Origin: Eubacteriales bacterium
GTDB taxonomy: Bacteria > Bacillota > Clostridia > Oscillospirales > CAG-272
DNA length: 64,000 nt
Direction of reading: 5' to 3'
NCBI GenBank assembly: GCA_045650025.1
Contig: JAZRQR010000130.1
Location: forward strand, 1,202 to 65,201
Shown: positions 1,987 to 26,818 of the stretch, one piece after another
Numbering within the stretch: position 1 is the first letter of the stretch
Layout: each line of letters opens with the position of its first letter
Made by a program: the position numbers and the translations under genes
The notes under the pieces: generated by a model
Database searches by the model: none
Told to the model about the DNA's origin: nothing
What the model saw: only the letters and a program-made list of their open reading frames with translations

Positions 1987-2021
1987 GACACCCATCGCGT
2001 TGCGATGGGTGTCTGGTTATT
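1987..2021 (+). terminator. Hairpin after tRNA-Ser
   Basis: GACACCCATCGC / GCGATGGGTGTC 12-bp stem followed by a T-containing tail (tggttatttg). Confidence 0.55.
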
Positions 2022-2153
2022 TGATGGAGATATAATAGGGATACGAACGCAGTGAGCAAAACAACCTGAATGGTTGTTTTGTGAACGGTGACCGAAGATT
2101 TTTGCGAAACATGACCTTGCGTTTCATCCGGAATGTTTCGCAAAAATCAAGAA

Positions 2154-2177
2154 CGAATCCCTCTGCCTCCGCCAAAT
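2154..2177 (+). repeat. Orphan copy of the tRNA-Ser 3' end (24-bp direct repeat of 1958-1981)
   Basis: CGAATCCCTCTGCCTCCGCCAAAT is identical at 1958-1981 and 2154-2177. No matching tRNA 5' half lies upstream of the second copy. Confidence 0.85.
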
Positions 2178-2183
2178 TGTAAG

Positions 2184-2216
2184 CCCCCCATCGCGGCGCG
2201 ATGGGGGGTGTTTTTA
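2184..2216. terminator. GC-rich hairpin plus T-run
   Basis: CCCCCCATCGC / GCGATGGGGGG stem followed by TGTTTTTA. It sits between the tRNA region (+) and the stop of the convergent MBL-fold gene (-). Confidence 0.7.
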
Positions 2217-11077: not shown

Positions 11078-12010
11078 ATGGAAGAAATTTATACCATTCC
11101 CCTTTCGCAGCTGGCAAAGGAATTTTCGTTTGAGCAGCTGTGCGTGCCCGAGGATTACGAGACCGTGCTGGTTCGCACCCCCGAGATCTCGCGCCCCGGC
11201 TTGGCTCTTGCCGGCTTTTACGGCATTTTTGACCGCGACCGTATTCAGATCATCGGCAACGCCGAGCACAGATATTTGGAAGGCCTTGCGCCCGACGTGC
11301 GCAAAAAGGCACTCCTTGCCTTTATCAAATCGCTGCCTGTGGCAGTGCTGATCACCTCGGGCAACCCCGTGTTCCCCGAAATGATCGAGCAGGCGCAGAT
11401 CTCGGGCGTTCCCGTGTTGCGCACCCAGGAGCAGACCAGCCCCATTATGGCAGCACTGATCGCCTCGCTCAACCAGCACTTGGCGCCCCGCATCACGCGC
11501 CACGGCGTATTGGTCGAGGTATACGGCGAGGGTATTTTGCTGCTGGGTGACAGTGGCGTTGGTAAGAGTGAAACTGCGATTGAGCTTGTCAAGAGAGGTC
11601 ACCGTCTGATCGCGGACGACGCCGTGGAGATCAAGCGCGTATCCGCCAAGACGCTGGTGGGATCTGCGCCCGAGATCATCCGTCACTACGTAGAGCTGCG
11701 CGGCATCGGTATTGTGGATATCCGCCGCCTGTTCGGTATGGGTGCTGTCAAGGAGACCGAGAAGATCGACCTGGTAATCAACTTGGAGCAATGGGTACAG
11801 GGTAAGATGTACGACCGCCTGGGTCTGGATGAGCAAAAGGTGGATATTTTGGGCATTAAGGTGCCCTGCACCACCATCCCCGTCAAGCCCGGCCGTAACC
11901 TTGCCATTATCTTAGAGATTGCGGCTATGAACAACCGCCAGAAGCGCATGGGCTACAACACCGTAGAGGAGTTCAACAAGAAGCTCATGGGACAGATGGG
12001 CTTGGAATAA
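11078..12010 (+). CDS. hprK: HPr kinase/phosphorylase
   Basis: 310 aa. Walker A GDSGVGKSE and ADD...E signature region (LIADDAVEIKR). Full-length match to the HprK architecture. Confidence 0.92.
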   Translation: MEEIYTIPLSQLAKEFSFEQLCVPEDYETVLVRTPEISRPGLALAGFYGIFDRDRIQIIGNAEHRYLEGLAPDVRKKALLAFIKSLPVAVLITSGNPVFPEMIEQAQISGVPVLRTQEQTSPIMAALIASLNQHLAPRITRHGVLVEVYGEGILLLGDSGVGKSETAIELVKRGHRLIADDAVEIKRVSAKTLVGSAPEIIRHYVELRGIGIVDIRRLFGMGAVKETEKIDLVINLEQWVQGKMYDRLGLDEQKVDILGIKVPCTTIPVKPGRNLAIILEIAAMNNRQKRMGYNTVEEFNKKLMGQMGLE

Positions 12011-12376: not shown

Positions 12377-12405
12377 TTGACAAGCGAAATCGAGAGTGCT
12401 ATAAT
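12377..12405 (+). promoter_or_regulatory. Consensus sigmaA promoter of T-box leader 1
   Basis: TTGACA (12377-12382), 17 nt, TATAAT (12400-12405). Confidence 0.75.
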
Positions 12406-12411
12406 GTTTTC

Positions 12412-12705
12412 AAATTTGAATATCACAAACAACGACTGTGATGAAGAAGGTCGGAGCAAGATGCTTCCAGAGAGTTGTCGGGCGGTGCGAGACAATGGCA
12501 GATGCTTCCGTATGACCTATCACTTCTGAGTCGGAGGACCGAACGGCACGCATGCGCCCAGTAGACTCCTTCCGTATTGCTGCGTAAAGGCAAAGGACTT
12601 GACAGAGTCCGGAAAGTGACGGAGCTTGTTTCCGTAATTTGAGTGGTACCGCGGGTAATTTTGCTCGTCTCAAAGGGTTTCTTTTGAGGCGGGTGTTTTT
12701 GTTTT
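12412..12705 (+). promoter_or_regulatory. T-box riboswitch leader 1 (candidate specifier AUC, Ile)
   Basis: Stem I has a UGAUGA K-turn, an AGAGAG bulge (12469-12474) and a GGUGCGA distal loop (12484-12490). Specifier-loop candidate is AUC-A (12519-12522). T-box consensus AAUUUGAGUGGUACCGCGG lies at 12637-12655. Terminator hairpin CGTCTCAAAG/CTTTTGAGGCG plus U-run lies at 12664-12705. Confidence 0.85.
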
Positions 12706-12758
12706 ATTCAGATTTGTAATCATCCACGAGAATTTCAGAAATGAAAGGAGACAACAAA

Positions 12759-15032
12759 ATGGATTACAGTTTGAAAGAGGTTGCAGGCAGAATCAAGGAC
12801 CTGCGAGAGGCAAAGGGATATACCCCTGCTGAGCTGGCTAAGCTGACCGGCGTTACGGTGGAGGACTACCTGTTGCTGGAGCAGGGCGAGACCGATTTCA
12901 GCTTCACCTTTATTTACAAGTGCGCCAAGGCGTGCGACGTAGAAGTAGTCGACCTTCTGGAAGGCCGAAGCACTACGCTGACCTCCTTTGCGATTACCAG
13001 ACGCGGCGAGGGCTTGAAGATTCTCAAGCAGCACGGCGTGGAATACAATAACTTAGCGCCCAAGTTCAAGGACAAGCTCGCAGAGCCCTTCCTTGTGAAG
13101 TTCCCCTATATTCCCGAGGAGCAGAATGCACCCATGAAGCTCAACTCGCACAACGGTCAGGAATTCGACGTTATCGTGCGCGGCTCTCTCAAGGTGCAGG
13201 TCGGCAACCACGTGGACATTCTGCACGAGGGTGACTCGATCTTCTACAACAGCTTGATCCCCCACGGCATGATCGCGGTCAGCGAGGGCGGCTGTGACTT
13301 CCATGCAGTCGTGCTCAATCCCCAGGACGGTCTGGTCAGCGAGGAGTACCCCGAAGCGCCCGTTGCCACCGCGCCCAAGGCAACCGCGCAGACCGTTGGC
13401 ACCGAGACCGTGGCAGACAACTTTGTAGAGTCCTACTACGATGAAAACGGCGTTTTCAACGGCATCAAGTTCAAGAACGCCGATAAGTTCAACTTTGCAT
13501 TTGACTGCGTAGACGCCATTGCACAAAAGACGCCCGATAAGCTGGCGATGATGTGGGTGGCAAACGATAAGACCGACCGCCGCTTTACCTTCAGCGATAT
13601 GAAGAAGTACTCGGCAAAAACCGCCAACTACTTTGAATCCCTTGGCATCAAGCGCGGCGACAAGGTCATGCTGGTGCTCAAGCGTCATTACCAGTTCTGG
13701 TTCTGCATGCTGGCGCTGCACAAGATCGGTGCTGTCGCCATCCCCGCAACCAACCAGTTAGTTGCGCACGACTTTGAATACCGCTACCAGGCGGCAAACG
13801 TCAAGGCAATCGTTTGCACCGCGGATGGAGAGGTTTCCACCGAGGCAGACAAGGCTGCTGCAGAGTATCCGGGCCTGCTTAAGATCATGGTAGGCGGTCA
13901 GAAACCCGGCTGGCATGACTTCAACGTGGAAATGGAGCGCTTCAGCACTCACTACTTCCGCACCGAGAACAGCCCCTGCGGCGATGATCCCATGCTCATG
14001 TTCTTCACCTCCGGCACGACCGGCTACCCCAAGATCGCAGCGCACAGCTACAAGTACGCGCTGGGTCACTACCCCACCGCCAAGCATTGGCACAACGTCA
14101 AGCCCGGCGGTCTGCACTTCACCATTTCGGACACCGGCTGGGGTAAGGCACTCTGGGGCAAGCTGTACGGTCAGTGGCTGTGCGAGGCAGCAACCTTTAC
14201 CTATGACTTTGACAGATTCCGCTCCGAGGACATTCTGCCTATGTTTGCCAAGTACGGCATCACCACCTTCTGCGCACCTCCCACCATGTACCGTTTCTTT
14301 ATCAAGGAGGATCTTTCCAAGTACGATCTCTCCTCGATCCAATACGCCACCACGGCAGGCGAAGCACTCAACCCCGAGGTATTCAGCCAGTTCAAGAAGG
14401 CAACCGGCCTGACCATTATGGAAGGCTTTGGTCAGACCGAGACCACGCTCTCGATCGCCAACTTTGTGGGCACTACGCCCAAGATCGGCTCGATGGGTCG
14501 TCCCAGCCCCCTGTACGATATCGTACTGCTGGATCCCGACGGCAATCCCTGTCCTACGGGTGACACGGGCGAGATCTGCATCCGCGTCAAGGACGACGTT
14601 CCCTGCGGCTTGTTCATCGGCTATTATCAGGACGAGGAAAAGACCCGCGACGTATGGCACGACGGCTATTACCACACAGGCGACCAGGCAACCATGGACG
14701 AGGACGGCTACCTCTGGTTTGTCGGACGTATTGACGACGTTATCAAGTCGTCCGGTTACCGCATCGGCCCGTTCGAGATCGAAAGCGTGATCATGGAGCT
14801 GCCCTACGTGCTGGAATGCGGCGTTAACGCGGCTCCCGATGAGATCCGCGGTCAGGTGGTCAAGGCAAGCATTGTGCTGACCAAGGGCACCGAGCCCACG
14901 GAGGCGCTTAAGAAGGAGATCCAGGAATACGTCAAGTCGCGTACGGCTCCCTATAAGTACCCGCGTATCGTGGTCTTCCGCGATGAGCTGCCCAAAACCA
15001 TCAGCGGTAAAATTATACGAAACAAGCTTTGA
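12759..15032 (+). CDS. XRE-HTH + cupin + AMP-forming (medium-chain type) acyl-CoA ligase fusion, paralogue 1
   Basis: N-terminal HTH (TPAELAKLTGVTVEDYLLLEQG), cupin (GDSIFYNSLIPHGM), then a ligase core (FTSGTTGYPK, SSGYRIGPFEIES, PKTISGKI). Start set at ATG 12759 behind AAAGGAG; the track start is 12741. Confidence 0.9.
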   Translation: MDYSLKEVAGRIKDLREAKGYTPAELAKLTGVTVEDYLLLEQGETDFSFTFIYKCAKACDVEVVDLLEGRSTTLTSFAITRRGEGLKILKQHGVEYNNLAPKFKDKLAEPFLVKFPYIPEEQNAPMKLNSHNGQEFDVIVRGSLKVQVGNHVDILHEGDSIFYNSLIPHGMIAVSEGGCDFHAVVLNPQDGLVSEEYPEAPVATAPKATAQTVGTETVADNFVESYYDENGVFNGIKFKNADKFNFAFDCVDAIAQKTPDKLAMMWVANDKTDRRFTFSDMKKYSAKTANYFESLGIKRGDKVMLVLKRHYQFWFCMLALHKIGAVAIPATNQLVAHDFEYRYQAANVKAIVCTADGEVSTEADKAAAEYPGLLKIMVGGQKPGWHDFNVEMERFSTHYFRTENSPCGDDPMLMFFTSGTTGYPKIAAHSYKYALGHYPTAKHWHNVKPGGLHFTISDTGWGKALWGKLYGQWLCEAATFTYDFDRFRSEDILPMFAKYGITTFCAPPTMYRFFIKEDLSKYDLSSIQYATTAGEALNPEVFSQFKKATGLTIMEGFGQTETTLSIANFVGTTPKIGSMGRPSPLYDIVLLDPDGNPCPTGDTGEICIRVKDDVPCGLFIGYYQDEEKTRDVWHDGYYHTGDQATMDEDGYLWFVGRIDDVIKSSGYRIGPFEIESVIMELPYVLECGVNAAPDEIRGQVVKASIVLTKGTEPTEALKKEIQEYVKSRTAPYKYPRIVVFRDELPKTISGKIIRNKL

Positions 15033-15049
15033 TTTTTCGTGTGATTTTT

Positions 15050-15075
15050 TGCAGGTTTCACAAACAAAACTTGCA
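15050..15075 (+). terminator. Weak hairpin between the two ligase transcription units
   Basis: TGCAGGTTT / AAAACTTGCA stem (one G-U) with a poor U-tract. Confidence 0.3.
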
Positions 15076-15083
15076 GAAATTTC

Positions 15084-15112
15084 TTGACACGAAAAGCACA
15101 TTATGATATAAT
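15084..15112 (+). promoter_or_regulatory. Consensus sigmaA promoter of T-box leader 2
   Basis: TTGACA (15084-15089), 17 nt, TATAAT (15107-15112). Confidence 0.75.
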
Positions 15113-15118: not shown

Positions 15119-15426
15119 TAATTTCTTGAAAAAGGCAATGACGAAAAATTCACGGGATTTGCGCATTTTACAGAGAGTCGGCGGCAGGTGTGTGCCGTCA
15201 GTACGCGCCCTTGATCTGATTTCCGAGCCGAGGGAAGAACGCATATGTCCGCCGACAAACGACATGGTTATTAGACCCCTCCGTACCCGCCGCGTTAAGG
15301 CATGGATGTTCCCCGCTTTCGTGGGATAACGCATCCGCAAAGTGGCGCTCTGCGCAATTTGAGTGGTACCGCGGACATGATATTCTTGCCCGTCTCAAGT
15401 CAGCTTGAGACGGGCATGCTTTTTTT
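15119..15426 (+). promoter_or_regulatory. T-box riboswitch leader 2 (candidate specifier CUG, Leu)
   Basis: AAUGA K-turn, AGAGAG (15172-15177), GGUGUG distal loop (15187-15192). Specifier candidate is CUG-A (15216-15219). T-box consensus AAUUUGAGUGGUACCGCGG lies at 15356-15374. Terminator GCCCGTCTCAAG/CTTGAGACGGGC plus U-run lies at 15388-15426. Confidence 0.85.
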
Positions 15427-15463: not shown

Positions 15464-17746
15464 ATGAGTAATCTGACAGGACTTGAACAGAAAATAGTCG
15501 AAATGGCGGCGCGTATCCGCGAGCTGCGTGAGATCGAGGGTCTGAGCGTTGCCTATATGGCAAACGCCGCAGGCGTCAGCCAGGAGGAATACTTGGATTG
15601 CGAGGCGGGTAAGCACGACCTCAACTTCGCATTTATTTACCGCTGCGCACAGGCGTTGCGCGTGGACGTGACCGAGATTATCGAAGGCTCTGCGCCCAAG
15701 CTGCAGACCTATACCCTGACCCGCCGCGGTGCAGGTCAGAAGATCGAGCAGGCGCACGGCATGAACTATTACAACATGGCGTACACCTTCAAGAGCCGTA
15801 TAGCAGAGCCCCTGTTCGTGCGCGCGACCTACAGCGCCGAAGCTGAGAACGCGCCCATTGCCGTGACCAGCCACCAGGGCCAGGAATGCGATATCGTCAT
15901 TGATGGTCGCCTGAAGGTCCAGATCGGCGATCACGTGGAGATCCTGAGCGCGGGCGATACCATTTACTACGACTCGTCCATCCCCCACGGTATGGTTGCC
16001 GTTGGCGGTAAGGACTGTACCTTCTACGCCATCGTGCTTGACCCCGATGCAGCCGAGCAGATCAAGGCGGTTGAGGTCGGTGCGGCGCCCAAGCTGACCG
16101 TGCGCGACGATCAGAAGCGCGTATGGCAGAATTTCGTGGACGTGACCGAAAACGAGCAAGGCATTCTGCAATCCCTCTCCTTCAAGAATACCGAGCACTT
16201 TAACTTTGCATACGATATCATCGACACGCTGGGCCGCGAGAAGCCCGATAAGCTGGCGATGCTGCACATTGCACAGGACATGACCGAGAGACGCTTCTCG
16301 TTCGGCGACATCAAGCGCGCCTCCTCCCAGTGTGCCAACTACTTCAAGTCGCTGGGCATCAAGAGAGGCGACCGCGTCATGCTGATCTGTAAGCGTCACT
16401 ACCAGTTCTGGTTCTCCATGCTGGCGCTGCACAAGATTGGTGCTGTGGCAATCCCCGCCTCCAACCAGCTGCAGGAGCACGACCTTTCCTACCGCTTTGG
16501 TGCGGCAGGCATCAGCGCCATCATCTGCACCGCAGACGGTGACGTGGCTCGTCAGGTAGAGCTTGCCGAGCAGGGCTGCCCCACGCTAACTGCCAAGATC
16601 CTGATCGGCGGCGAACGCGAGGGCTGGCGCAACTTTGACGCCGAATATTCCCTGTTCAGCGGCAAGTGGGAGCGCGACGAAAACTCCCCCGGCGGCGACG
16701 ACCTGATGCTCATGTTCTTTACCTCGGGCACGACGGGGTATCCCAAGATCGCAGCGCACAGCTACAAGTACGCGCTGGGTCACTTCCATACCGCAAAATA
16801 CTGGCATTGCGTAGACCCCGAGGGTCTGCACCTGACCATTTCCGACACCGGCTGGGCAAAGGCAATGTGGGGTAAGATGTACGGTCAGTGGCTGTGCGAG
16901 GCGGCAACCTTTGTATACGACTTTGACCCCTTTGACGCATCCGTCATTCTTCCCATGTTTGCAAAGCACCACATCACCACCTTCTGTGCTCCCCCCACCA
17001 TGTACCGCATGATGATCAAGCAGGATCTGACCAAGTACGATCTTTCCTCGGTCAAGCATGCAGCCATTGCGGGCGAGGCACTCAACCCCGAGGTCTACCA
17101 CCGCTTCAAGCAGCTTACGGGTCTGGAGCTCATGGAAGGCTTTGGTCAGTCCGAGACCACGCTGGTGATCGGTAACCTGGTCGGCATGACGCCCAAGATC
17201 GGCTCTATGGGCAAGCCCGTTCCCTTGTATGACGTCAGCATCGTGGATCCCGACGGCAATCCCGTTGGAGTGGGCGAGAGCGGCGAGATCGTCATTCGCA
17301 CCGATATTGAGCATCCCAACGGTCTGTTCCAGGGCTACTACAACGCTCCCGAGAAGACCGCAGAGGTATGGCACGACGGCTACTACCACACCGGTGACGT
17401 GGCATGGCGCGACGAGGACGGCTACTACTGGTACGTCGGCCGCGTGGATGACGTTATCAAGTCCTCCGGTTACCGTATTGGCCCGTTTGAGATCGAGAGC
17501 GTCATCATGGAGCTGCCTTACGTACTGGAATGCGGCGTCAGCGCAGCACCCGATGAAATTCGCGGCCAGGTCGTTAAGGCAAGCATCGTGCTCACGGGCG
17601 GCAAGCAGCCCTGTGAGGAGCTTAAGAAAGAAATTCAGGCGTACGTCAAGTCGCGTACCGCCCCCTATAAATACCCCAGAATCGTGGTCTTCTGCGAAAG
17701 CCTGCCCAAAACTACCAGCGGCAAGATCATTCGTAACAAGCTGTAA
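15464..17746 (+). CDS. XRE-HTH + cupin + AMP-forming acyl-CoA ligase fusion, paralogue 2
   Basis: 760 aa, colinear with 12759-15032 over its full length with the same motifs. AAGGAG RBS upstream of ATG 15464. Confidence 0.9.
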   Translation: MSNLTGLEQKIVEMAARIRELREIEGLSVAYMANAAGVSQEEYLDCEAGKHDLNFAFIYRCAQALRVDVTEIIEGSAPKLQTYTLTRRGAGQKIEQAHGMNYYNMAYTFKSRIAEPLFVRATYSAEAENAPIAVTSHQGQECDIVIDGRLKVQIGDHVEILSAGDTIYYDSSIPHGMVAVGGKDCTFYAIVLDPDAAEQIKAVEVGAAPKLTVRDDQKRVWQNFVDVTENEQGILQSLSFKNTEHFNFAYDIIDTLGREKPDKLAMLHIAQDMTERRFSFGDIKRASSQCANYFKSLGIKRGDRVMLICKRHYQFWFSMLALHKIGAVAIPASNQLQEHDLSYRFGAAGISAIICTADGDVARQVELAEQGCPTLTAKILIGGEREGWRNFDAEYSLFSGKWERDENSPGGDDLMLMFFTSGTTGYPKIAAHSYKYALGHFHTAKYWHCVDPEGLHLTISDTGWAKAMWGKMYGQWLCEAATFVYDFDPFDASVILPMFAKHHITTFCAPPTMYRMMIKQDLTKYDLSSVKHAAIAGEALNPEVYHRFKQLTGLELMEGFGQSETTLVIGNLVGMTPKIGSMGKPVPLYDVSIVDPDGNPVGVGESGEIVIRTDIEHPNGLFQGYYNAPEKTAEVWHDGYYHTGDVAWRDEDGYYWYVGRVDDVIKSSGYRIGPFEIESVIMELPYVLECGVSAAPDEIRGQVVKASIVLTGGKQPCEELKKEIQAYVKSRTAPYKYPRIVVFCESLPKTTSGKIIRNKL

Positions 17747-18408
17747 TGAAGCAAAAACGCATTACCTTGTTCGTGGGACATTACGGCAGCGGAAAAACCA
17801 ATCTGGCAGTCAATTACGCCATGCACTTGCACAGGCAGGGTGAGCGCGTGGTGCTGGCAGATATGGACATCGTTAACCCCTACTTCCGCTCCAAGGACAG
17901 CGAAGACGAGCTGCAAGCGCTCGGCATTCAAACGCTCTCCTCCCCTTACGCCAACACCAATCTGGACGCACCCGCCATGCCCGCTTCGTTTTACGGCATC
18001 TTTGAGCACAAGGATCGCCTGGCGGTGCTTGACGTGGGCGGCGATGACCGCGGCGCGGTGGCGCTGGGCAGATACGTGCCCATGATACGCGAGGAGAACG
18101 ACTTTGAAATGATCTTTGTTGCCAACGCCTATCGCGCGCTGACCCCCGACCCCGAGGACGCCCTTGAGGTGCTGCGCGAGATCGAGCATGCCTGCAAGCT
18201 GCCCGTGACCGCCATTGCCAACAACTCCCACTTGGGCGAATTTACCGATGCGGACACCGTGCTCTCCTCCCAAGGCTACGTGCAAAAGCTTTGCGAGCTG
18301 ACCGGGCTGCCGCTGGTGATGACCGCCTTTGAAGAGCGTCTGGCGTCCGAGCTGGCGCATCGCGTGCAAAACCCCTTCCCCATTACCCTACAGAAGAAAT
18401 ATTATTGA
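17746..18408 (+). CDS. MinD/ParA/CooC-class (SIMIBI) P-loop NTPase
   Basis: Deviant Walker A GHYGSGKT close to the N-terminus; DMDIVNP and VGGD motifs. Its start overlaps the ligase stop (TAATG). Confidence 0.7.
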   Translation: MKQKRITLFVGHYGSGKTNLAVNYAMHLHRQGERVVLADMDIVNPYFRSKDSEDELQALGIQTLSSPYANTNLDAPAMPASFYGIFEHKDRLAVLDVGGDDRGAVALGRYVPMIREENDFEMIFVANAYRALTPDPEDALEVLREIEHACKLPVTAIANNSHLGEFTDADTVLSSQGYVQKLCELTGLPLVMTAFEERLASELAHRVQNPFPITLQKKYY

Positions 18409-18432: not shown

Positions 18433-18639
18433 ATGGCAAAACTCACTATTGACGTCGAGAGATGCAAGGGCTGCGGACTTTGCGTGGCAAACTGTCCCAA
18501 AAAGCTTTTGCACATCGCCAAAGACAAAATCAACTCCAAGGGCCATTGCCCTGCCCAAATCACCGATGAATCCGCCTGCGTGGGCTGCGCAAGCTGCGCT
18601 CTGATCTGCCCGGACTGCGTGATCACGGTAGAAAGATAA
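18433..18639 (+). CDS. 2-oxoacid:ferredoxin oxidoreductase delta subunit (2x[4Fe-4S] ferredoxin)
   Basis: 68 aa with CKGCGLCVANCP and CVGCASCALICP cluster motifs. Confidence 0.85.
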   Translation: MAKLTIDVERCKGCGLCVANCPKKLLHIAKDKINSKGHCPAQITDESACVGCASCALICPDCVITVER

Positions 18640-18652: not shown

Positions 18653-19711
18653 ATGTCTGATAAGGTACTTATGAAAGGCAATGAAGCCATTGCCGAGGCT
18701 GCTATTATGGCAGGCTGCCGTCACTATTTCGGCTACCCCATCACCCCCCAGACCGAAATTGCGGCATACATGGCAAAAAAGATGCCCAAGATCCGCGGCT
18801 GCTTCCTGCAGGCTGAAAGCGAGATCGCTGCTATCAACATGGTCTACGGCGTTGCCGCTACGGGCAAGAGAGTTATGACCTCTTCGTCCTCCCCCGGAAT
18901 CTCGCTGAAAAGCGAGGGCATTTCCTACTTGGCAGGCGCTGACCTGCCTGCGCTGATCGTCAACGTCCAGCGCGGCGGCCCCGGCCTTGGCGGTATCCAG
19001 CCCTCTCAGTCCGATTATTTCCAGGCAACCCGCTCCTGCGGTCACGGCGACTTCCACCTGATCGTGCTGGCTCCCAGCTCGGTACAGGAAATGGCAGAGC
19101 TGACCGTTAAGGGCTTTGACCTTGCCGACAAATACCGCATGACCTCCATGATCCTTGCCGACGGTACTATGGGTCAGATGATGGAGCCCGTCTCGCTTGC
19201 CGACATCAAGCCCACCACGGTGGAAAAGCCCTGGGCGGTCACCGGTACCAAGCTGGAGAGAAAGCACAATATCGTCAACTCGCTCTCCTTGATTCCCGAG
19301 GAGCTCGAGCAGCAGAACTTTGACCGCTTCGACCGCTACCGCCTGGTAGAAGAGAACGAGGTCATGTACGAGGAATTTATGATGGAGGATGCAGAGATCT
19401 GCATCGCGGCATTCGGTATTGCCGCTCGCGTTTCCAAGAACGCAGTCATCGCTGCCCGCGAGATGGGCATCAAGGTGGGTATGATCCGTCCCATCACGCT
19501 CTGGCCCTTCCCCAAGCAGGCGTTCCGTAAGGCCGCCGATCAGGTTAAGGCATTTATTTCGGTCGAGCTGTCCATGGGACAGATGATCGACGACATTCGT
19601 CTTGCCGAGGAATGCATTCGTCCCGTATATCTGTGCAACAGAGCGGGCGGTATGATCCCCTCTCCCGAACAGGTACTGGCAAGCATTCAAAGCATTGCAG
19701 GAGGTAACTGA
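18653..19711 (+). CDS. 2-oxoacid:ferredoxin oxidoreductase alpha subunit
   Basis: MKGNEAIAEAAIMAGCRHYFGYPITPQTEI is the typical POR/VOR/KOR alpha N-terminus. 352 aa. Confidence 0.9.
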   Translation: MSDKVLMKGNEAIAEAAIMAGCRHYFGYPITPQTEIAAYMAKKMPKIRGCFLQAESEIAAINMVYGVAATGKRVMTSSSSPGISLKSEGISYLAGADLPALIVNVQRGGPGLGGIQPSQSDYFQATRSCGHGDFHLIVLAPSSVQEMAELTVKGFDLADKYRMTSMILADGTMGQMMEPVSLADIKPTTVEKPWAVTGTKLERKHNIVNSLSLIPEELEQQNFDRFDRYRLVEENEVMYEEFMMEDAEICIAAFGIAARVSKNAVIAAREMGIKVGMIRPITLWPFPKQAFRKAADQVKAFISVELSMGQMIDDIRLAEECIRPVYLCNRAGGMIPSPEQVLASIQSIAGGN

Positions 19712-19713: not shown

Positions 19714-20475
19714 ATGGTAGTTTTCAAAAGACCGCACGCACTTGCGGATATGACCATGCATTACTGCCCCGGCTGCACGCACGGTATTGTGCACAGACTG
19801 GTGGCTGAGGTCATGGACGAGCTTGGCATTGAGGGTAAAACGGTAGGCGTTGCGCCCGTCGGCTGCTCGGTTATGGCATATAACTATTTCAATTGCGATA
19901 TGGTGGAGGCTGCACACGGACGCGCTCCCGCCGTTGCAACCGGACTTAAGAGAGCCAACCCCGAAAACGTGGTATTCACCTATCAGGGTGACGGCGACCT
20001 TGCTTCCATCGGTATGGCAGAGACGGTACACGCCGCTGCACGTAACGAGAATATTACCGTTATTTTCATCAACAACGCCATCTACGGCATGACCGGCGGT
20101 CAGATGGCTCCCACCTCGCTGCCCGGTCAGGTCACCCAGACCTCTCCCTACGGCAGAGATACCGATCATTGCGGCTTCCCCGTTAAGGTTTCCGAGATGC
20201 TCTCGCAGCTGGAAGGCCCGCAGTACATCGAGCGCGTTGCCGTCACCAGCGTTGCAGGCATCCGCAAGGCGAAGAAGGCGATCCTCAAGGCGTTCCAGAA
20301 TCAGGTGGATGGCAAGGGCTTTTCGCTGGTTGAGGTCATCTCCACCTGCCCGACCAACTGGGGCATGACGCCCGAAAAGGCAATGCAGTGGGCTAACGAG
20401 AACATGCTGCCCTACTATCCTCTGGGCGTATACCGTGACCGCGATGCACAGAAGAAGGAGGACGCACAGGCATGA
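19714..20475 (+). CDS. 2-oxoacid:ferredoxin oxidoreductase beta subunit (TPP-binding)
   Basis: YCPGCTHG plus GDGD...NN..YGMTGGQ TPP motif. 253 aa. Confidence 0.9.
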   Translation: MVVFKRPHALADMTMHYCPGCTHGIVHRLVAEVMDELGIEGKTVGVAPVGCSVMAYNYFNCDMVEAAHGRAPAVATGLKRANPENVVFTYQGDGDLASIGMAETVHAAARNENITVIFINNAIYGMTGGQMAPTSLPGQVTQTSPYGRDTDHCGFPVKVSEMLSQLEGPQYIERVAVTSVAGIRKAKKAILKAFQNQVDGKGFSLVEVISTCPTNWGMTPEKAMQWANENMLPYYPLGVYRDRDAQKKEDAQA

Positions 20476-21011
20476 AAACCTTACAGATGTTGATTGCAGG
20501 CTTTGGTGGCCAGGGCGTTCTGTTCCTTGGCAAGATCGTGGCGTATCAGGGTCTGATTGCCGATAAACAGGTCAGCTGGCTGCCCTCCTACGGCCCCGAA
20601 ATGCGCGGCGGTACGGCAAACTGCTCCATTATCGTAAGCGACACCCCCGTCGGCTCGCCCATCGTGGCTACCCCCGACTGTCTGGTTGCCATGAACCTGC
20701 CCTCGCTTGACAAGTACGAGGCAGCCGTCGTGCCCGGCGGTAAGATCTTTGTGGACAGCACGCTGATCACCCGTAAGATCGAGCGCGAGGACGTAGACGC
20801 ATACTACATTCCCGCAACCCAGATTGCCAACGAGATGGGCATTCCCACGCTGGCAAACATGATCATTCTCGGCAAGGTGCTTGCCGAATACCCCGAGCTT
20901 GGCATGGAGTACCTGGAAGCCGCTATGGGCAAGGTCGTCAGCGCCAAGAGAGCCAACCTGATCGAGCAGAATCTGAACGCCATCAAGCTGGGCTACGAAT
21001 ACAAGGCTTAA
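20472..21011 (+). CDS. 2-oxoacid:ferredoxin oxidoreductase gamma subunit
   Basis: [12 protein letters not shown]...[12 protein letters not shown] motif. ATGA overlap with the beta subunit gene. Confidence 0.9.
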
Positions 21012-21023: not shown

Positions 21024-22091
21024 ATGTTGGATATCAAAATCATTGAAAACGAGCAGACCTGGGAGCTTCCCGAGGACAGCAAGCTCGGCTTTGGCAGATA
21101 CTTTACCAACCACATGTTCATGATGGACTATAACAAGCAAGAGGGCTGGCACAATGCGCGCATCGTGCCCTTTGGCACCATTGCGCTGCACCCCGCTGCT
21201 ACCGTGCTGCACTACGGCGCGGAGATCTTTGAGGGGCTTAAGGCTTACCGCCGCCTGTCCGACGGCAAGGTGCAGATGTTCCGTCCCATGGAAAACATTC
21301 GCCGCATGAACGTCAGCGCAGAAAGGCTGTGCCTGCCCACCATTCCCGAAGAGGATGCGCTGCAGTGCTACACCGAATTTGTGCGCCACGAGCAGGCTTG
21401 GGTCCCTCACACCGAGGGCACCTCGCTCTACATCCGCCCCTTTATGTTCGGTAACGACCCCTACCTTGGCGTACACGGCGTAAACGAAGCAGTCTTTATG
21501 ATCATCGCTTCCCCCAGCGGCTCCTATTACAAGGAGGGCATCAACCCCGTTAAGATCATGATCGAGGGTGAGGACGTCCGCGCTGTCAAGGGTGGCACGG
21601 GTCACATCAAGTGCGGCGGCAACTACGCTGCCAGCACCAGAGCCGGCGACAAGGCTGAAAAGCAGGGTTACTCGCAGGTGCTTTGGCTGGACGGCGTGGA
21701 GCGCAAGTACATCGAAGAAGTCGGCGCGATGAACGTTATGTTCAAGATCGACGGCGAAATTGTCACCCCCGCGCTGACCGGCTCGATTTTGCCCGGTATT
21801 ACCAGAAAGTCCTGCCTGGAGGTGCTGCGTGACGCAGGCTATTCTGTCAGCGAGCGCCGTATCAGCGTAGACGAGCTGATCGAGGCTGCACAGACAGGCA
21901 AGCTGGAAGAGGCTTGGGGTACCGGCACGGCAGCAGTTGTTTCCCCCATTGGCGAGCTTTGCTACGGCGGCGTTCGCTACCCCGTCAGCGGCGGCAAGAT
22001 CGGCGCTGTCACCCAGTCCCTGTACGATACCCTGACCGGTATTCAATGGGGCAAGATCCAGGATACCAAGGGATGGATCTTAGAAATCTAA
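21024..22091 (+). CDS. ilvE: Branched-chain amino acid aminotransferase (fold type IV)
   Basis: 355 aa. FGRYFTNHMF, EIFEGLKAY, and GTGHIKCGGNYAAS...GTGTAAVVSP, typical of the long BCAT subclass. Confidence 0.9.
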   Translation: MLDIKIIENEQTWELPEDSKLGFGRYFTNHMFMMDYNKQEGWHNARIVPFGTIALHPAATVLHYGAEIFEGLKAYRRLSDGKVQMFRPMENIRRMNVSAERLCLPTIPEEDALQCYTEFVRHEQAWVPHTEGTSLYIRPFMFGNDPYLGVHGVNEAVFMIIASPSGSYYKEGINPVKIMIEGEDVRAVKGGTGHIKCGGNYAASTRAGDKAEKQGYSQVLWLDGVERKYIEEVGAMNVMFKIDGEIVTPALTGSILPGITRKSCLEVLRDAGYSVSERRISVDELIEAAQTGKLEEAWGTGTAAVVSPIGELCYGGVRYPVSGGKIGAVTQSLYDTLTGIQWGKIQDTKGWILEI

Positions 22092-22109: not shown

Positions 22110-23513
22110 ATGCGCAATCTCATTATTAACGATATCACTCTCTGCACAAAGCTTGCCGCAGACCAGCTCTCGTTCCGCGAAAAGGTGCAGGCTGCCAGAT
22201 TGCTGGGCAAGATGCACGTCTCGCAGATCACGCTGCCCCAGATCAAGAGCCACAAGGCAGACGCGCTGCTGGCGCGCACCGTAGCGTCGGTCATTACCGA
22301 CACGGTGCTCTGCGCACGCGTCAAGCACGACGGCTCGGATGCCGAGGAGGTATACGCCTCGATCAGCGCGGCAAAGAACAAAAAGCTCGCGCTGGCGCTA
22401 CCCACCTCGCAGGCACAGCTGGAGTTCTTATATCACATCAAGCCCGCAAACGCAGCGGGGACCGTGCAAAAGGGTATTTCTGCGGCACGCGCGCTGTGCG
22501 AAAACGTGGAATTCGTGGCGGAGGACGCCATTCGCGGCGACTATGCCATTCTGACCGGCTGCATCAAGGCAGCGATCGAGGCAGGTGCAACCACCGTCAC
22601 CATCTGCGATCCCGAGGGCTATGCCCTGCCCGCAGATATGATCGTTTTTGTACAAAAGCTCAAGGCTGACGTACCCGAGCTGGCAAACGTCACGCTGGGT
22701 CTTTCCTGCTCGGACGCTTGCGGTCTGGCGCTTGCCACCGTACTGGAATCTCTCTCTGCAGGCGTTGGACAGATCGATCTGTGCTGCGCAGGCAATCAGG
22801 CACCGAGCACCGCTGCAACGCTTTCCATTCTCGCGCAGAGATCCGAGGCGCTGGGCGTGAGCACCTGCGTACTCTACACCGAGGCAAAGACCTGCGCTGC
22901 CGATACCGCACGCCTGTTTGACAAAAAGGCAAGCGGCAAGCTGGATACCGCGCTTGCTACCGAGGGGGAGGGCCTGGTTCTGGACGCAAACGTAGACAAG
23001 CACACCGTGCTTGCCGAGGTGGCAAAGCTGGGCTACACGCTTTCCGCCGAGGACGCTAACCGCGTATACGAGGAATGCAAGAGCATCGCGCAGAGCAAGA
23101 CCATTGGCTCGCGCGAGCTGGACACCATTGTGGCAGCCGTTGCCATGCAGGTGCCCTCTACCTATAAGCTGGTCACCTACGTGATCAATAGCGGTAACAC
23201 CTTCTCCTCCTCTGCGCACATCACCGTGGCAAAGGGCGAAAAGACGCTGCAGGCGATCTCCCTGGGCGACGGTCCGATCGACGCTGCCTTCAAGGCGCTG
23301 GAGCAGATCGTTGGCCACCACTACGAGCTGGACGATTTCCAGATCCACGCCGTGACCGAGGGTCGCGAGGCAGTTGGCTCTGCGCTGGTCAAGCTGCGCT
23401 CCGAGCGCGGTCTGCAGGCAGGCCAGGGCGTTTCCACCGACATCATCGGTGCGTCCATCCGCGCATATCTGGATGCGCTCAACAAGATCGTATATGAGGA
23501 GGCACTGGCGTGA
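22110..23513 (+). CDS. 2-isopropylmalate/citramalate synthase-like protein with degenerate catalytic motifs
   Basis: Colinear with the HMGL-like TIM barrel plus LeuA-dimer domain. The C-terminal domain is conserved (GDGPIDAAFKALEQIVG, STDIIGASIRAYLDALNKI). The RDGEQ-type and HxH motifs are replaced (ITLCTKLAADQ; LSCSDACG). Confidence 0.75.
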   Translation: MRNLIINDITLCTKLAADQLSFREKVQAARLLGKMHVSQITLPQIKSHKADALLARTVASVITDTVLCARVKHDGSDAEEVYASISAAKNKKLALALPTSQAQLEFLYHIKPANAAGTVQKGISAARALCENVEFVAEDAIRGDYAILTGCIKAAIEAGATTVTICDPEGYALPADMIVFVQKLKADVPELANVTLGLSCSDACGLALATVLESLSAGVGQIDLCCAGNQAPSTAATLSILAQRSEALGVSTCVLYTEAKTCAADTARLFDKKASGKLDTALATEGEGLVLDANVDKHTVLAEVAKLGYTLSAEDANRVYEECKSIAQSKTIGSRELDTIVAAVAMQVPSTYKLVTYVINSGNTFSSSAHITVAKGEKTLQAISLGDGPIDAAFKALEQIVGHHYELDDFQIHAVTEGREAVGSALVKLRSERGLQAGQGVSTDIIGASIRAYLDALNKIVYEEALA

Positions 23514-26011
23514 AGCTCTCGTTTTCCAACAGAAAATGGACGGCATGTTCCTATGCCGACCTGCTTTCCCTGTGCGATGCCACGGGTATGCAGGGTCTGG
23601 AGCTTTATGACGTTGCCGATACCTTAGGTGCGCCCGGTCAGCCCTTTGACGCTTCGTGCGCCAGAAGCACGCTGCACACGCTGATCGACCGCCGCATCAC
23701 CCCCGTTTGTTTTGATACATCTGCCGATATTTCTGCCCCCGATGGAGAGGCTTGCGTGCAAACGCTGCGCTCCTACATCGCACTGGCGGCTGCCTTCCGC
23801 GTTCCTTACGTCCGCGTGCACACGCGCACCGACGGCACGGATTGCTTTGATATCGTTTGCAACAATATCGCGCCTCTCTTGCCCTATGCGCAGGAAATGG
23901 GCGTTACGCTGCTGCTGGAGACGGCAGGATGCTTTGCGCATACCGATTCGCTGCGCGAGATCCTCAACCGCTTTGCAAGTGACAGCCTGGGCGCGCTTTG
24001 GGATATGTACAACACCTGCCTTGTGGCAGGCGAGTCGCCCGAGACCACCATTACCAACCTGGGCGCTTACGTCAAGCACGTCCACGTGCGCGACGCCAAG
24101 AATGGCGAATACTGCTTTATGGGCGAGGGCGACCTGCCCATGACGGACCTGATCCGTGCACTCTCCTCGGTCAACTACGACGGCTTTATCTCGCTGGAGT
24201 GGGATCCCGCCTGGATCGCGGACATTGACGATCCCGAGATCATTCTGACCCAGTTTGCCACCTACATGGAGCGTTTTTTCGACACCTCACGTGCGCAGGA
24301 CCACCTCTATGATAACAACGCGCACACGGGTAAGTACGTGTGGAAAAAGGACACGCTGATCGACATGACCTTCTCGCAGGTACTGGACCGCATGGTCGAG
24401 CTGTTCCCCGACCAGTATGCCTTCAAGTACACCACGCTCAACTACACCAGAACCTACGCACAGTTCCGCCGCGACGTGGACAAGTGCGCACGTGCCCTGC
24501 TCTCGCTGGGCGTTCGTCCGGGCAGCCACGTAGCAGTTTGGGCAACCAACGTGCCCGAGTGGTATATCGCCTTCTGGGCGGTGACCAAGATCGGCGCGGT
24601 GCTGGTTTCCATGAATACCGCTTACAAGATCCACGAAGCAGAATACCTCCTGCGTCAGTCCGATACCCACACGCTGATCATGGTAGACGGCTACCGTGAC
24701 TCCAACTACCGTGCCATCATTCGCGAGCTTTGCCCTGAAATGGAGACCACGCCCGCAGGCGAGGCGCTGCATTGCAAGCGCTTGCCCTTCTTGCGCCGCG
24801 TGATCACCTGCGGCTTTGAGGAAAAGGGCGCTTTGACCTGGGAGCAGGCGATGACCTACTCGAACGGTACCCCCCGCGAGGAGCTTGCCCGCGTGGCAGC
24901 CGGCGTTTCTCCGCACGACGTCTGCAACATGCAGTACACCTCGGGCACGACCGGATTCCCCAAAGGCGTTATGCTGACGCACTACAACATTGTCAACAAC
25001 GGTAAGTGCATCGGCGACCGCATGGATCTTTCCACCGCCGACCGCATGATGATTCAGGTGCCCATGTTCCATTGCTTTGGCATGGTGCTTGCAATGACCG
25101 CATCCATGACGCACGGCGTTTCGATCTACCCGCTGCCCTACTTCTCTCCCCGTCCTGCTCTGGCGTGCATTCACCAGGAGCGCATTACCGCATTCCATGG
25201 CGTACCCACCATGTTCATTGCCCTGCTCGAGCACCCCGATTTTGCCAAGACCGACTTCTCGCACGTACGTACCGGCATTATGGCAGGCAGCCCCTGCCCC
25301 ATTTCGGTCATGCGCGACGTGGTAGACAAGATGCACATGAGCGAGATCACCATCGTGTACGGTCAGACCGAGGCGTCTCCCGGCTGCACCATGTCCTCGA
25401 CCAACGACCCGCTTGAGGTGCGCGTTGGTACGGTTGGACGCGCCCTGCCCGAGATCGAGTGCAAGGTAGTCGACCCCGAAACCGGTGAGGAGATGCCCGT
25501 TGGTCAGAACGGCGAGTTCGTAGCCCGCGGCTATAACATTATGAAAGGATATTACAAGATGCCCCGCGCAACCGCTGCCGCCATTGACAAGGACGGCTGG
25601 CTGCACACGGGTGACCTTGCTGCCATGACCGAGGACGGAAACTTCCGTATCACCGGTCGACTCAAGGATATGATCATCCGCGGCGGCGAGAACATCTATC
25701 CCAAGGAGATCGAGGAATTCATTTATACCCATCCCAAGGTCAAGGACGTACAGGTCATCGGCGTGCCCGATGAGCAGTATGGCGAGGAAATTATGGCTTG
25801 CATCATCCTCAAGGAGGGTGAGAGTATGACCGAAAAGGAAATGAAGGGCTATATTCTCGATCACATGGCGCGCCACAAGGTGCCCAAGTACATTGATTTT
25901 GTGGATTCCTTCCCCATGAACGTGGCTGGCAAGATCCTCAAATACAAGATGCGCGAGGACGCCGTCAAAAAGCTGGGTCTGCAAAAGGCTGACAGCATTG
26001 TGACCGCGTAA
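23510..26011 (+). CDS. Xylose-isomerase-like TIM-barrel domain fused to an AMP-forming acyl-CoA ligase (FadD-like)
   Basis: 833 aa. The N-terminal ~260 aa is an AP_endonuc_2/sugar-phosphate-isomerase-like barrel (LLLETAG, HVHVRDA, ISLEWD). The C-terminus has YTSGTTGFPKGV, GEFVARGYNIMKGYY and GRLKDMIIRGGENIYP. GTG start overlaps the upstream stop (GTGA). Confidence 0.85.
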   Translation: MKLSFSNRKWTACSYADLLSLCDATGMQGLELYDVADTLGAPGQPFDASCARSTLHTLIDRRITPVCFDTSADISAPDGEACVQTLRSYIALAAAFRVPYVRVHTRTDGTDCFDIVCNNIAPLLPYAQEMGVTLLLETAGCFAHTDSLREILNRFASDSLGALWDMYNTCLVAGESPETTITNLGAYVKHVHVRDAKNGEYCFMGEGDLPMTDLIRALSSVNYDGFISLEWDPAWIADIDDPEIILTQFATYMERFFDTSRAQDHLYDNNAHTGKYVWKKDTLIDMTFSQVLDRMVELFPDQYAFKYTTLNYTRTYAQFRRDVDKCARALLSLGVRPGSHVAVWATNVPEWYIAFWAVTKIGAVLVSMNTAYKIHEAEYLLRQSDTHTLIMVDGYRDSNYRAIIRELCPEMETTPAGEALHCKRLPFLRRVITCGFEEKGALTWEQAMTYSNGTPREELARVAAGVSPHDVCNMQYTSGTTGFPKGVMLTHYNIVNNGKCIGDRMDLSTADRMMIQVPMFHCFGMVLAMTASMTHGVSIYPLPYFSPRPALACIHQERITAFHGVPTMFIALLEHPDFAKTDFSHVRTGIMAGSPCPISVMRDVVDKMHMSEITIVYGQTEASPGCTMSSTNDPLEVRVGTVGRALPEIECKVVDPETGEEMPVGQNGEFVARGYNIMKGYYKMPRATAAAIDKDGWLHTGDLAAMTEDGNFRITGRLKDMIIRGGENIYPKEIEEFIYTHPKVKDVQVIGVPDEQYGEEIMACIILKEGESMTEKEMKGYILDHMARHKVPKYIDFVDSFPMNVAGKILKYKMREDAVKKLGLQKADSIVTA

Positions 26012-26088: not shown

Positions 26089-26117
26089 TTGACGCAACAA
26101 GAAGAATATGCTATAAT
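26089..26117 (+). promoter_or_regulatory. SigmaA-type promoter
   Basis: TTGACG (26089-26094), 17 nt, TATAAT (26112-26117), upstream of the CPBP protease gene. Confidence 0.65.
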
Positions 26118-26143: not shown

Positions 26144-26818
26144 ATGGAAAAATCCAAGAAAAACGCAATAGCCGTACTGGTGCTCTCGCTCTCGCTCTGC
26201 GTCTGCATGGGCTTGGTTGACGCGATCCTCTCGCCGCCGTATGCCGTCAAAAGTGCCATCAAATTGGTACTGTTCGGTGCGATCCCCATCATTTGCCTGA
26301 TCTCGACAAAATCCTTTGCGCCCAAAAAGCTGTTCTCGCTCAAGGGACAGCACGCAAAGCTGATCGCGCCCCTTGCCGTGGGCATTTTTTCCGTGATCAT
26401 GATCGCATTTTTTGCGCTGCGCAATTTCATTGATTTTTCATCCGTAACCGATTCGGTGACAGCAGACGCGGGCGTGACGCGCGAGAATTTTATCTTCGTC
26501 GCGCTGTATATTGCGCTGATCAACTCCTTTTTGGAGGAATTTTTCTTCCGCGGCTTTTGCTTTTTCTCTCTGCGTCCGCTCGGGCTCCCCTTTGCCTACG
26601 TGGCAAGTGCCCTGCTCTTTTCCGCCTATCACGTTGCGTTTATGGACGGTTGGCTCTCGCCCGTCATTTTTGCGCTGTCCCTTTTGGGCATGGCGATCGG
26701 CGGTGCGATCTTCGCCTTTCTCAACCATAAGACCGAAAGTCTGCTGCCCTCGTATTTCGTGCATATGGCGTCCAATCTTGCCACCAATCTGATCGGTATT
26801 ATCATGTTTTACTCATAA
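26144..26818 (+). CDS. CPBP-family intramembrane glutamic endopeptidase (CAAX protease/Abi)
   Basis: Polytopic membrane protein with EEFFFRG, FSAYH and HMASN motifs. Confidence 0.85.
   Translation: MEKSKKNAIAVLVLSLSLCVCMGLVDAILSPPYAVKSAIKLVLFGAIPIICLISTKSFAPKKLFSLKGQHAKLIAPLAVGIFSVIMIAFFALRNFIDFSSVTDSVTADAGVTRENFIFVALYIALINSFLEEFFFRGFCFFSLRPLGLPFAYVASALLFSAYHVAFMDGWLSPVIFALSLLGMAIGGAIFAFLNHKTESLLPSYFVHMASNLATNLIGIIMFYS

Follow-up and report, generated by a model that had tools for sequence, protein, structure and literature searches.

What remains for an enzyme of leucine biosynthesis to do once its catalytic residues have gone? The question is raised by a gene at positions 22110 to 23513 of a 64,000-nucleotide stretch of contig JAZRQR010000130.1 from an Eubacteriales bacterium (assembly GCA_045650025.1; the whole stretch is referred to below as the window). 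Its product, here called psLeuA, resembles 2-isopropylmalate synthase (IPMS), LeuA, and its gene overlaps that of TIM-ACS3, an acyl-CoA ligase carrying an extra TIM barrel. Judged by its sequence, psLeuA is a non-catalytic paralogue of bacterial IPMS. On balance it is probably the leucine-sensing, non-catalytic partner of what is likely to be an isovalerate-CoA ligase, in a pathway leading from isoacids to branched-chain amino acids (BCAAs). An earlier annotation made from the letters of the DNA only (the sequence-only reading) had proposed that the catalytic motifs were lost and the LeuA regulatory domain kept, and that the protein might serve as a feedback sensor or regulatory subunit. The gene and its domains are laid out as follows:

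22110..23513, plus strand: psLeuA, the apparently dead LeuA paralogue of 467 residues, an open reading frame (ORF) from ATG to TGA
22110..22874, plus strand: the degenerate HMGL-like TIM barrel of psLeuA, a DRE-TIM barrel (residues 1-255)
residues 256-335 of psLeuA: remnant of the accessory domain
23115..23510, plus strand: the LeuA_dimer regulatory domain (residues 336-467), with the GDGPIDA loop and the predicted pocket residues

The relationship to LeuA is far above chance, as the Pfam E-values indicate: HMGL-like (PF00682) covers residues 16-254 (E 4e-25) and LeuA_dimer (PF08502) residues 334-460 (E 1.3e-28). The NCBIfam equivalog models for LeuA, CimA and NifV all match psLeuA and all fall far under their cutoffs; the best, NF002086, scores 238.9 bits against a cutoff of 532, and the others lie further below theirs. 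An AlphaFold2 model built on an alignment of 32 family sequences has a mean pLDDT of 85.8. By Foldseek its barrel is close to that of Neisseria meningitidis IPMS (3rmj; rmsd 2.0 Å, TM 0.81), and the full-length model matches BjMAMS (6e1j) and Mycobacterium tuberculosis LeuA (1sr9/3fig), so the proposed colinearity with bacterial LeuA holds and extends to the fold. In the model (DSSP), the regulatory domain consists of one unit with strands at 353-360, 367-375 and 378-386 and a helix at 389-401, and a second with strands at 406-414, 423-431 and 434-442 and a helix at 445-466. A PDB search with the regulatory domain alone as query gave no matches; a profile query was needed, and the regulatory-domain profile reaches the corresponding domain of Leptospira interrogans citramalate synthase (LiCMS; 3f6g, E 1e-10) as well as 1sr9/3fig.

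In IPMS and MAMS enzymes, the catalytic set comprises Arg89, the metal ligands Asp90, His288 and His290, Gln93, Glu227 and Thr257, together with the general base His388 and the stacking partner Tyr399; the Arg belongs to a DxxLRDGxQ motif in which it is invariant and essential (PMC11532901). psLeuA was aligned with E. coli LeuA (from NC_000913) and with 196 distinct family members, and in psLeuA these positions read:

catalytic Arg: replaced by Cys12
metal Asp: replaced by Thr13
catalytic Gln: replaced by Ala16
Thr of PDTVG: replaced by Pro168
first metal His: replaced by Ser199
second metal His: replaced by Ser201
Glu and Arg of GERAGN: deleted
His of HSSGIHQDG and the stacking Tyr (subdomain I): removed by a deletion of about 30 residues

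The losses run through the whole family. The Arg column holds Lys in 75 members, Cys in 39, Arg in 35, Ala in 12 and further residues in the rest; the Asp column holds Gln, Glu, Thr or Leu, and the first-His column Ser, Glu, Gln, Leu or His. The second-His column is Ser in 140 of the 196 members, with His absent from its commonest residues. The Glu and Arg of GERAGN and the His and Tyr of subdomain I are deleted in every member, and none keeps more than four of the nine alignable catalytic residues. Only the Glu survives from the EDAxR motif in psLeuA, at a column that is variable across the family. The former catalytic columns thus vary freely, with no new conserved set in their place, which looks like the picture of relaxed constraint on a dead active site.

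All of the strings quoted by the sequence-only reading are found in the ORF, namely NDITLCTKLAADQ at the N-terminal motif, LSCSDACG, CAGNQAPS and, from the regulatory domain, GDGPIDAAFKALEQIVG, TEGREAVGSALVKL and STDIIGASIRAYLDALNKI. Its central claim survives alignment: the catalytic motifs are truly lost, not merely shifted. The GERAGN-type stretch had been taken as rewritten to CAGNQAPS; here the loss stands and the rewriting does not, since the AGN of that string aligns with the NGI preceding GERAGN and the motif itself is deleted. The subdomain-I deletion had gone unseen. A new metal or Fe-S site, suggested by the many cysteines near the old active site of psLeuA, was also considered and dropped: conservation is limited to C130, C166 and C200, of which C200 corresponds to the Cys between the two His of the HCH motif in LeuAs such as P0255 and P0258, and C130 lies on the opposite face.

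The psLeuA family is encoded in more than 570 GTDB species representatives, mostly Oscillospirales; the carriers are mainly gut and rumen metagenome-assembled genomes (MAGs) labelled Oscillospiraceae, Acutalibacteraceae, Faecousia or ‘Clostridia bacterium’. Searched with a profile, a set of 1.84 billion representative proteins yielded over 110 clusters (50% identity) with lengths of 453-484 residues. The gene is under purifying selection: against its three closest orthologues, the window psLeuA gives dN/dS values of 0.11-0.22 over the barrel, and over the regulatory domain they drop to 0.03-0.12. Identity of family members to the window protein averages 0.71 across the regulatory domain, compared with 0.43 across the barrel; positions that are at least 90% identical make up 46% of the former and 14% of the latter. 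Four canonical LeuAs compared with one another show the reverse, at 0.46-0.54 in the barrel and 0.30-0.43 in the regulatory domain. The regulatory domain that had been described as intact is indeed so, and it is the best-conserved part of the protein. The barrel keeps scaffold motifs (D8/T10, S100, D139-x-x-R142 and D167), and its invariant positions are mostly common to true LeuAs (D8, T10, E24, K25, S100, D139, R142, G159 and D167).

Four LeuA homologues of about 500 residues with partly degenerate motifs (P0250, at 2005-3516 of locus L165; P0244, at 8001-9536 of L166; P0242; P0263) were rejected as psLeuA members or intermediates. Their motifs include STLCEGER and TTLCDGEQ, with HxH reduced to HSQ or RAY. 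The neighbour and identity evidence comes from P0244 and P0250, which adjoin leuC, not the ligase, and are 28% identical to psLeuA. These homologues may represent independent inactivations of LeuA or unusual active enzymes.

The regulatory domain is a preserved sensor domain of the Leu type. The GxGPxDA ligand loop is present and invariant as G386-D-G-P-I-D-A392. The ligand contacts, which we take to be L535/A536, V551, Y554, A558 and A565 in M. tuberculosis LeuA and Y430/D431, L451, Y454, I458 and V468 in LiCMS, map by profile alignment to I390/D391, L407, F410, A414, A421 and G423 of psLeuA; these positions are invariant in the family, except that 414 is Ala or Ser. The resulting signature, GDGPIDA/L/F/A or S/A/G, is identical to that of the canonical LeuA P0258 and near-identical to that of the Leu-inhibited E. 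coli LeuA, and differs at three positions from that of the Ile-specific LiCMS. G423 aligns with G462 of E. coli LeuA, presumably the residue altered in the classic feedback-resistant leuA allele G462D. From these residues psLeuA is predicted to bind leucine, and an isolated LeuA-type regulatory domain is able to bind its amino acid unaided (PMC13381585). Beyond the positions common with LeuA, the domain carries about 30 invariant positions specific to the family.

The partner of psLeuA is defined by the gene that follows it:

23510..26011, plus strand: TIM-ACS3, 833 residues, a xylose-isomerase-like TIM barrel (AP_endonuc_2, residues 1 to ~280) fused to an AMP-forming acyl-CoA ligase (residues ~290-833)
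23497..23503, plus strand: GAGGAGG, the Shine-Dalgarno sequence of TIM-ACS3

Translational coupling to this third ligase of the cluster had been proposed from a GTGA overlap. The overlap is real, with GTG at 23510 and TGA at 23511-23513, and coupling is universal in the family. A first survey of neighbours compared the window’s flanking proteins with 80 related loci by tblastn, and there the fusion always came next after psLeuA. After removal of duplicate contigs, and counting only loci with enough downstream DNA, TIM-ACS3 starts at most 260 nt downstream of psLeuA in all 135 distinct loci; in the converse scan, which started from the TIM domain, psLeuA was the gene immediately before it at every one of the 73 loci. 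The commonest arrangement is a 4-nt ATGA/GTGA overlap (30 of 79 loci), the rest being mostly gaps of 1-25 nt, and even the most divergent psLeuAs, P0237 and P0229 (31-35% identity), are paired in the same way. The GAGGAGG sits within the codons of the conserved YEE at the psLeuA C-terminus; the ‘VYEE’ codons (region 23488-23513) thus double as the Shine-Dalgarno sequence of TIM-ACS3, and constraint on the RNA may explain some of the conservation of the C-terminus.

The ligase itself is intact. Its adenylation motifs are intact in all 69 sequences compared, with TSGTTGFPKG invariant, and YGQTE, TGD, GRxK and the A10 motif PxNxAGK are also present. The TIM domain is a confident fold (pLDDT 89.7), for which a fold search returned only generic sugar isomerases and epimerases (TM ~0.7, 13-19% identity) and no functional lead. 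It mostly keeps its His/Asp/Glu metal ligands (23510-24349), the first Glu (LLxET) being Lys in a subset of orthologues. Source records name the fusion just ‘AMP-binding protein’ or ‘TIM barrel protein’. TIM-ACS3 is the probable isovalerate-CoA ligase; literature searches found no description of a bacterial isovalerate-CoA ligase. psLeuA and TIM-ACS3 would form a physical complex, perhaps by way of the ligase’s TIM domain.

The link to leucine comes also from the RNA leaders. In the window psLeuA and TIM-ACS3 form the end of a transcription unit that begins with a second ligase, ACS2, while the first ligase, ACS1, has control elements of its own:

15084..15112, plus strand: sigma-70 promoter of the ACS2 to TIM-ACS3 unit, matching the consensus at 12/12 positions, extended TG
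15129..15400, plus strand: T-box leader of the ACS2 to TIM-ACS3 unit, with specifier CUG (Leu) at 15216-15218 and terminator at 15387-15416
12377..12740, plus strand: control region of ACS1, with a consensus promoter at 12377-12405 and a T-box leader at 12429-12675, specifier AUC (Ile) at 12519-12521 and terminator at 12662-12695

The two leaders are paralogous, measure about 300 nt and lie behind two perfect sigma-70 promoters, and each ends in a terminator before ACS1 or ACS2. A scan of the window at the Rfam gathering threshold detected neither T-box; both appear in E-value mode, the ACS1 leader at 78.4 bits (E 1.4e-16) and that of the ACS2 to TIM-ACS3 unit at 61.2 bits (E 3.7e-12). Their specifiers were read from the covariance-model alignment and stem-I geometry, and the CUG is conserved in the closest relative. 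Elsewhere, 92 of 133 distinct loci have a T-box core motif ahead of psLeuA, at a distance of 68-280 nt, and of the 72 specifiers called 70 are Leu (CUC in 59 loci, CUG in 11). When ten leaders were tested with the Rfam model, nine exceeded the gathering score, at 99-134 bits, and showed CUC as the specifier. The specifiers of ligases of the ACS1 and ACS2 type, in which a helix-turn-helix (HTH) and a cupin domain precede the ligase, are AUC (Ile) or GUA/GUC (Val) across loci, so that each class of ligase maps to one BCAA. Among relatives, the T-box of the ACS2-type ligase is usually of Val specificity (GUA), and psLeuA is served by a separate Leu T-box; in the window lineage, it seems, the two units were fused and the leader was re-specified. 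The psLeuA unit is thus one that uncharged tRNA-Leu switches on through the T-box. Together these observations support the view that psLeuA is the leucine-specific component of a module of two genes and does not sense BCAAs generically on behalf of the whole cluster.

The surrounding genes supply the rest of a pathway. In the window they run in the order ACS1, ACS2, P-loop, VOR, IlvE, psLeuA, TIM-ACS3:

12741..15032, plus strand: ACS1, HTH (XRE), cupin and MbcS-like acyl-CoA synthetase
15464..17746, plus strand: ACS2, HTH (XRE), cupin and MbcS-like acyl-CoA synthetase
17746..18408, plus strand: P-loop protein, CbiA/ParA/Mrp-like, 220 residues
18433..21011, plus strand: VOR, a complete 2-oxoisovalerate-type 2-oxoacid:ferredoxin oxidoreductase (OFOR)
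18433-18639, plus strand: VOR delta, a 68-residue 2x[4Fe-4S] protein
18653-19711, plus strand: VorB/alpha
19714-20475, plus strand: VOR beta, binding thiamine pyrophosphate
20472-21011, plus strand: VOR gamma
21024..22091, plus strand: IlvE, branched-chain amino acid aminotransferase (NF009897, 466 bits, cutoff 307)

AMP-forming ligases, an OFOR and a transaminase fit an assimilatory direction, from branched acid to acyl-CoA, 2-oxoacid and BCAA, and the carboxylation of isovalerate on the way to leucine is established rumen biochemistry (PMC7356843). Literature searches on reductive carboxylation found no paper on this operon. ACS1 and ACS2 match NF047394 (MbcS) at 433-438 bits; MbcS takes 2-methylbutyrate and isobutyrate and hardly any isovalerate (PMC10026030), which leaves isovalerate for the psLeuA-coupled ligase. 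ACS1 is a separate, Ile-controlled cistron with its own terminator (15046-15079). Both proteins, of about 760 residues, carry HTH and cupin domains fused N-terminally to the ligase, an unusual architecture for an enzyme and regulator, and the HTH-cupin module could do for Ile and Val what psLeuA would do as a sensor for leucine. The P-loop protein shows weak similarity to the CbiA/ParA/Mrp type and precedes the VOR delta gene in nearly every locus with a VOR block; it could be a maturation factor or an extra VOR subunit.

Outside the window, the block of VOR, IlvE and HTH-cupin ligases may lie upstream, downstream, divergently or more than 10 kb from the pair, so that linkage of psLeuA and TIM-ACS3 to an OFOR is frequent and not obligatory. 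In one locus (L161, 10001-21401) the genes after the pair encode a PFOR-type OFOR made as one chain of 1167 residues, in place of the four-subunit VOR, and a LivJHM ABC transporter for branched-chain amino acids; in another the pair stands alone. In a third (L023, 10001-18546, JALCHN010000016, a MAG labelled Eggerthellaceae) it is followed by leuC-leuD-leuA-leuB, where the LeuA has every catalytic motif. This layout occurs in only one of about 165 loci, and the presence of the pair beside a canonical leuA indicates that psLeuA coexists with a real LeuA and is not its remnant. Leu-specifier T-boxes and the linkage to leuCD-leuA-leuB in this locus both point to leucine.

Some further features of the window were noted. 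A near-consensus promoter at 26089-26117 precedes a gene for a CPBP/Rce1-like intramembrane protease (26144-26818); only in the closest relatives does this gene follow TIM-ACS3. Also present are a tRNA whose variable arm is long (1891-1975, 55.6 bits) and the genes of an HPr kinase/phosphorylase, shortly before the cluster (11078-12010), and of a GH38 alpha-mannosidase, downstream of it (27584-29971, minus strand); all fit a Firmicutes gut organism.

A mechanism for psLeuA can be proposed on this basis. psLeuA and TIM-ACS3 would be made together, probably at matched levels, as the leucine-specific entry module of an isoacid-to-BCAA pathway. TIM-ACS3 would convert isovalerate to isovaleryl-CoA, the VOR-type oxidoreductase would carboxylate this reductively to 2-oxoisocaproate, and IlvE would transaminate the product to leucine. 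Uncharged tRNA-Leu turns transcription on via the T-box, and psLeuA would add fast end-product control on top, inhibiting isovalerate activation when leucine is plentiful. Leucine is predicted to bind the conserved inter-subunit pocket and so make the dimer of regulatory domains more rigid; this change would reach the ligase, probably via its N-terminal TIM domain, and inhibit it. The dead barrel would be retained as a scaffold for dimerisation and docking. In LeuA, two domain-swapped chains form a dimer and each covers the active site of its neighbour with its own accessory domain; the barrel may be kept because the LeuA regulatory pocket forms between the subunits of that barrel-mediated dimer (PMC9860122). 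That psLeuA and TIM-ACS3 together constitute a two-protein, leucine-gated isovalerate-activating enzyme, with the HTH-cupin ligases as parallel entry points for Ile and Val, is a more specific proposal, and one to which we would give slightly less than an even chance.

Several known systems resemble parts of this scheme. HisZ, a dead paralogue of histidyl-tRNA synthetase, is the regulatory subunit of the short form of ATP phosphoribosyltransferase. It appears to be the closest conceptual precedent for psLeuA: a dead paralogue of an amino-acid-binding enzyme gives end-product control to an unrelated first-step enzyme, and psLeuA likewise combines lost catalytic residues, purifying selection and strict co-occurrence with a partner. 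The two differ in fold and in class of partner, and the HisZ-HisG complex and its inhibition by histidine are experimental whereas the complex and inhibition proposed for psLeuA are inferred. With bacterial LeuA itself (3rmj, 1sr9/3fig) psLeuA shares the GxGPxDA loop and pocket residues, and its regulatory domain is 37-39% identical to those of Clostridia-type LeuAs. It differs in lacking the catalytic Arg, metal Asp, His-x-His, GERAGN Glu/Arg and subdomain-I His/Tyr, in its inverted pattern of constraint between domains, and in being paired with an acyl-CoA ligase rather than standing in leu operons, the leuCD-leuA-leuB locus excepted.

The regulatory domain of CimA (3f6g/3f6h) is homologous to that of psLeuA (profile E 1e-10). 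It is Ile-specific, and its presumed pocket residues Y430, I458 and V468 correspond to Ile, Ala/Ser and Gly in psLeuA; it also works in cis, and the barrel that it controls is active. When isolated, in dimeric or tetrameric form, the CimA domain binds a BCAA by itself (PMC13381585). IlvH/IlvN, the small regulatory subunits of acetohydroxyacid synthase, are separate BCAA-binding polypeptides that exert feedback on an adjacently encoded catalytic subunit, but they have an ACT fold and involve no dead enzyme paralogue. MbcS, the methylbutyryl-CoA synthetase of Staphylococcus aureus and the nearest characterised relative of ACS1 and ACS2, activates branched short-chain acids (PMC10026030). It is unrelated to psLeuA, has neither the HTH nor the cupin of ACS1 and ACS2, and feeds lipid synthesis, not amino-acid synthesis.

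Other explanations fit the evidence less well than a leucine sensor, and they can be weighed against the same observations. A leuA pseudogene in decay, or an error of annotation, could be argued from the lost motifs and from the faster evolution of psLeuA relative to its neighbours; this reading is already refuted by intact full-length ORFs in more than 570 species, dN/dS values of 0.1-0.2, a highly conserved regulatory domain, and conserved synteny and T-box control. It is very unlikely that psLeuA forms heterodimers with canonical LeuA as the dominant regulatory protomer of the isopropylmalate pathway, as might be suggested by the domain-swapped LeuA dimer with its accessory domain capping the partner’s active site (PMC9860122), and by the locus where the pair adjoins a canonical leuA: a leuA lies nearby in only that one of about 165 loci, and it is the ligase, not leuA, that never varies as the partner. 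New chemistry that needs no metal, perhaps performed jointly with the TIM barrel of the ligase, might use the retained D8/T10/S100/D139/R142/D167 face and the conserved Cys130, Cys166 and Cys200. The barrel is indeed under purifying selection, with invariant residues at the C-terminal ends of its beta-strands; each of the three cysteines is conserved in 78-92% of members and the partner TIM domain keeps most of its metal ligands. We nevertheless regard such chemistry as unlikely, since about 14 of the 20 conserved barrel positions are scaffold inherited from LeuA, all positions contacting substrate, metal or CoA in IPMS vary freely, the subdomain I that bears the acetyl-CoA site and the His is deleted, the barrel is the least conserved folded part, and the known pathway needs no extra enzyme.

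Two other alternatives keep psLeuA as a partner of the ligase. It could be an obligatory structural, activating or channelling subunit with no sensor function, which docks the ligase to the OFOR, for example, or holds isovaleryl-CoA; the regulatory domain would then be conserved as a protein-protein interface. Universal adjacency and translational coupling would suit such a role, the roughly 30 family-specific invariant positions exceed the needs of ligand binding, the T-box already provides leucine control, and the DRE-TIM aldolase DmpG (1nvm, a Foldseek match) channels with a CoA-dependent partner. The ligand loop and pocket residues are, however, exactly those of leucine-regulated LeuAs, and OFOR linkage is not obligatory, which makes this reading improbable, if less so than the other alternatives. 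Alternatively, psLeuA might respond to 2-oxoisocaproate, isovaleryl-CoA, Ile or Val in regulating the ligase or its TIM domain. A change of ligand has a precedent in the LeuA_dimer domain, CimA binding Ile (PMC13381585), family-specific invariant residues surround the pocket, and part of the C-terminal face of the barrel is still conserved; but the pocket signature is that of Leu-type LeuAs, not LiCMS, and the T-box specifiers are overwhelmingly Leu (70 of 72 calls), so that a different ligand has perhaps no better prospects than new chemistry.

Several observations also weigh against psLeuA as a leucine-sensing partner. The TIM domain of TIM-ACS3 could be an enzyme that needs psLeuA for something else, because its set of metal ligands is mostly intact. 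psLeuA diverges faster (40-45% identity) than TIM-ACS3 (58-70%) or VOR (75-80%), which is unusual for a tightly fitting subunit, and none of the 150 best matches listed from the 1.84 billion representatives joins psLeuA to the ligase or its TIM domain in one chain. Both T-boxes of the window score below the Rfam gathering score of 93, and at roughly one locus in four neither a T-box nor any other Rfam element could be detected. The assignment of isovalerate to TIM-ACS3 follows from regulon logic only. Finally, the pocket comparison starts from assumed ligand contacts in M. tuberculosis LeuA and LiCMS, whose numbering agrees with the printed sequences and with ‘463K/464T’ (PMC13381585).

psLeuA belongs to a widespread, uncharacterised family, and the pseudoenzyme is a probable regulatory subunit. 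Literature searches found no description of a LeuA-derived pseudoenzyme, and those on PF08502 returned only unrelated contexts and a biosensor paper (PMC13381585). At least one source (JGI) names a family member ‘2-isopropylmalate synthase’; with such labels, metabolic reconstructions of Oscillospirales and of gut and rumen MAGs could credit an organism with a LeuA that it may lack or miss its real route. The family offers a clean and widespread case of an allosteric enzyme whose catalysis has gone while its sensor has stayed, and in which the usual balance of constraint between the domains is turned round. It also provides a natural stand-alone LeuA-type domain, maybe specific for leucine, of the kind that serves in BCAA biosensors (PMC13381585).

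The isoacids isovalerate, isobutyrate and 2-methylbutyrate serve as growth factors for rumen bacteria that degrade fibre, and they are also added to feed. Their conversion to BCAAs is poorly defined at the level of genes, and T-box specifiers assign a class of ligase to each amino acid, giving substrate predictions that can be tested. If psLeuA and TIM-ACS3 do form a leucine-gated, two-protein enzyme, the pair would be the first gene-level definition of the committed step from isovalerate to leucine in rumen bacteria, a route known since the 1960s, and the first LeuA-derived pseudoenzyme to act in trans as an allosteric subunit of an unrelated adenylate-forming enzyme. The pathway would then comprise three ligases, three sensors and three classes of T-box.

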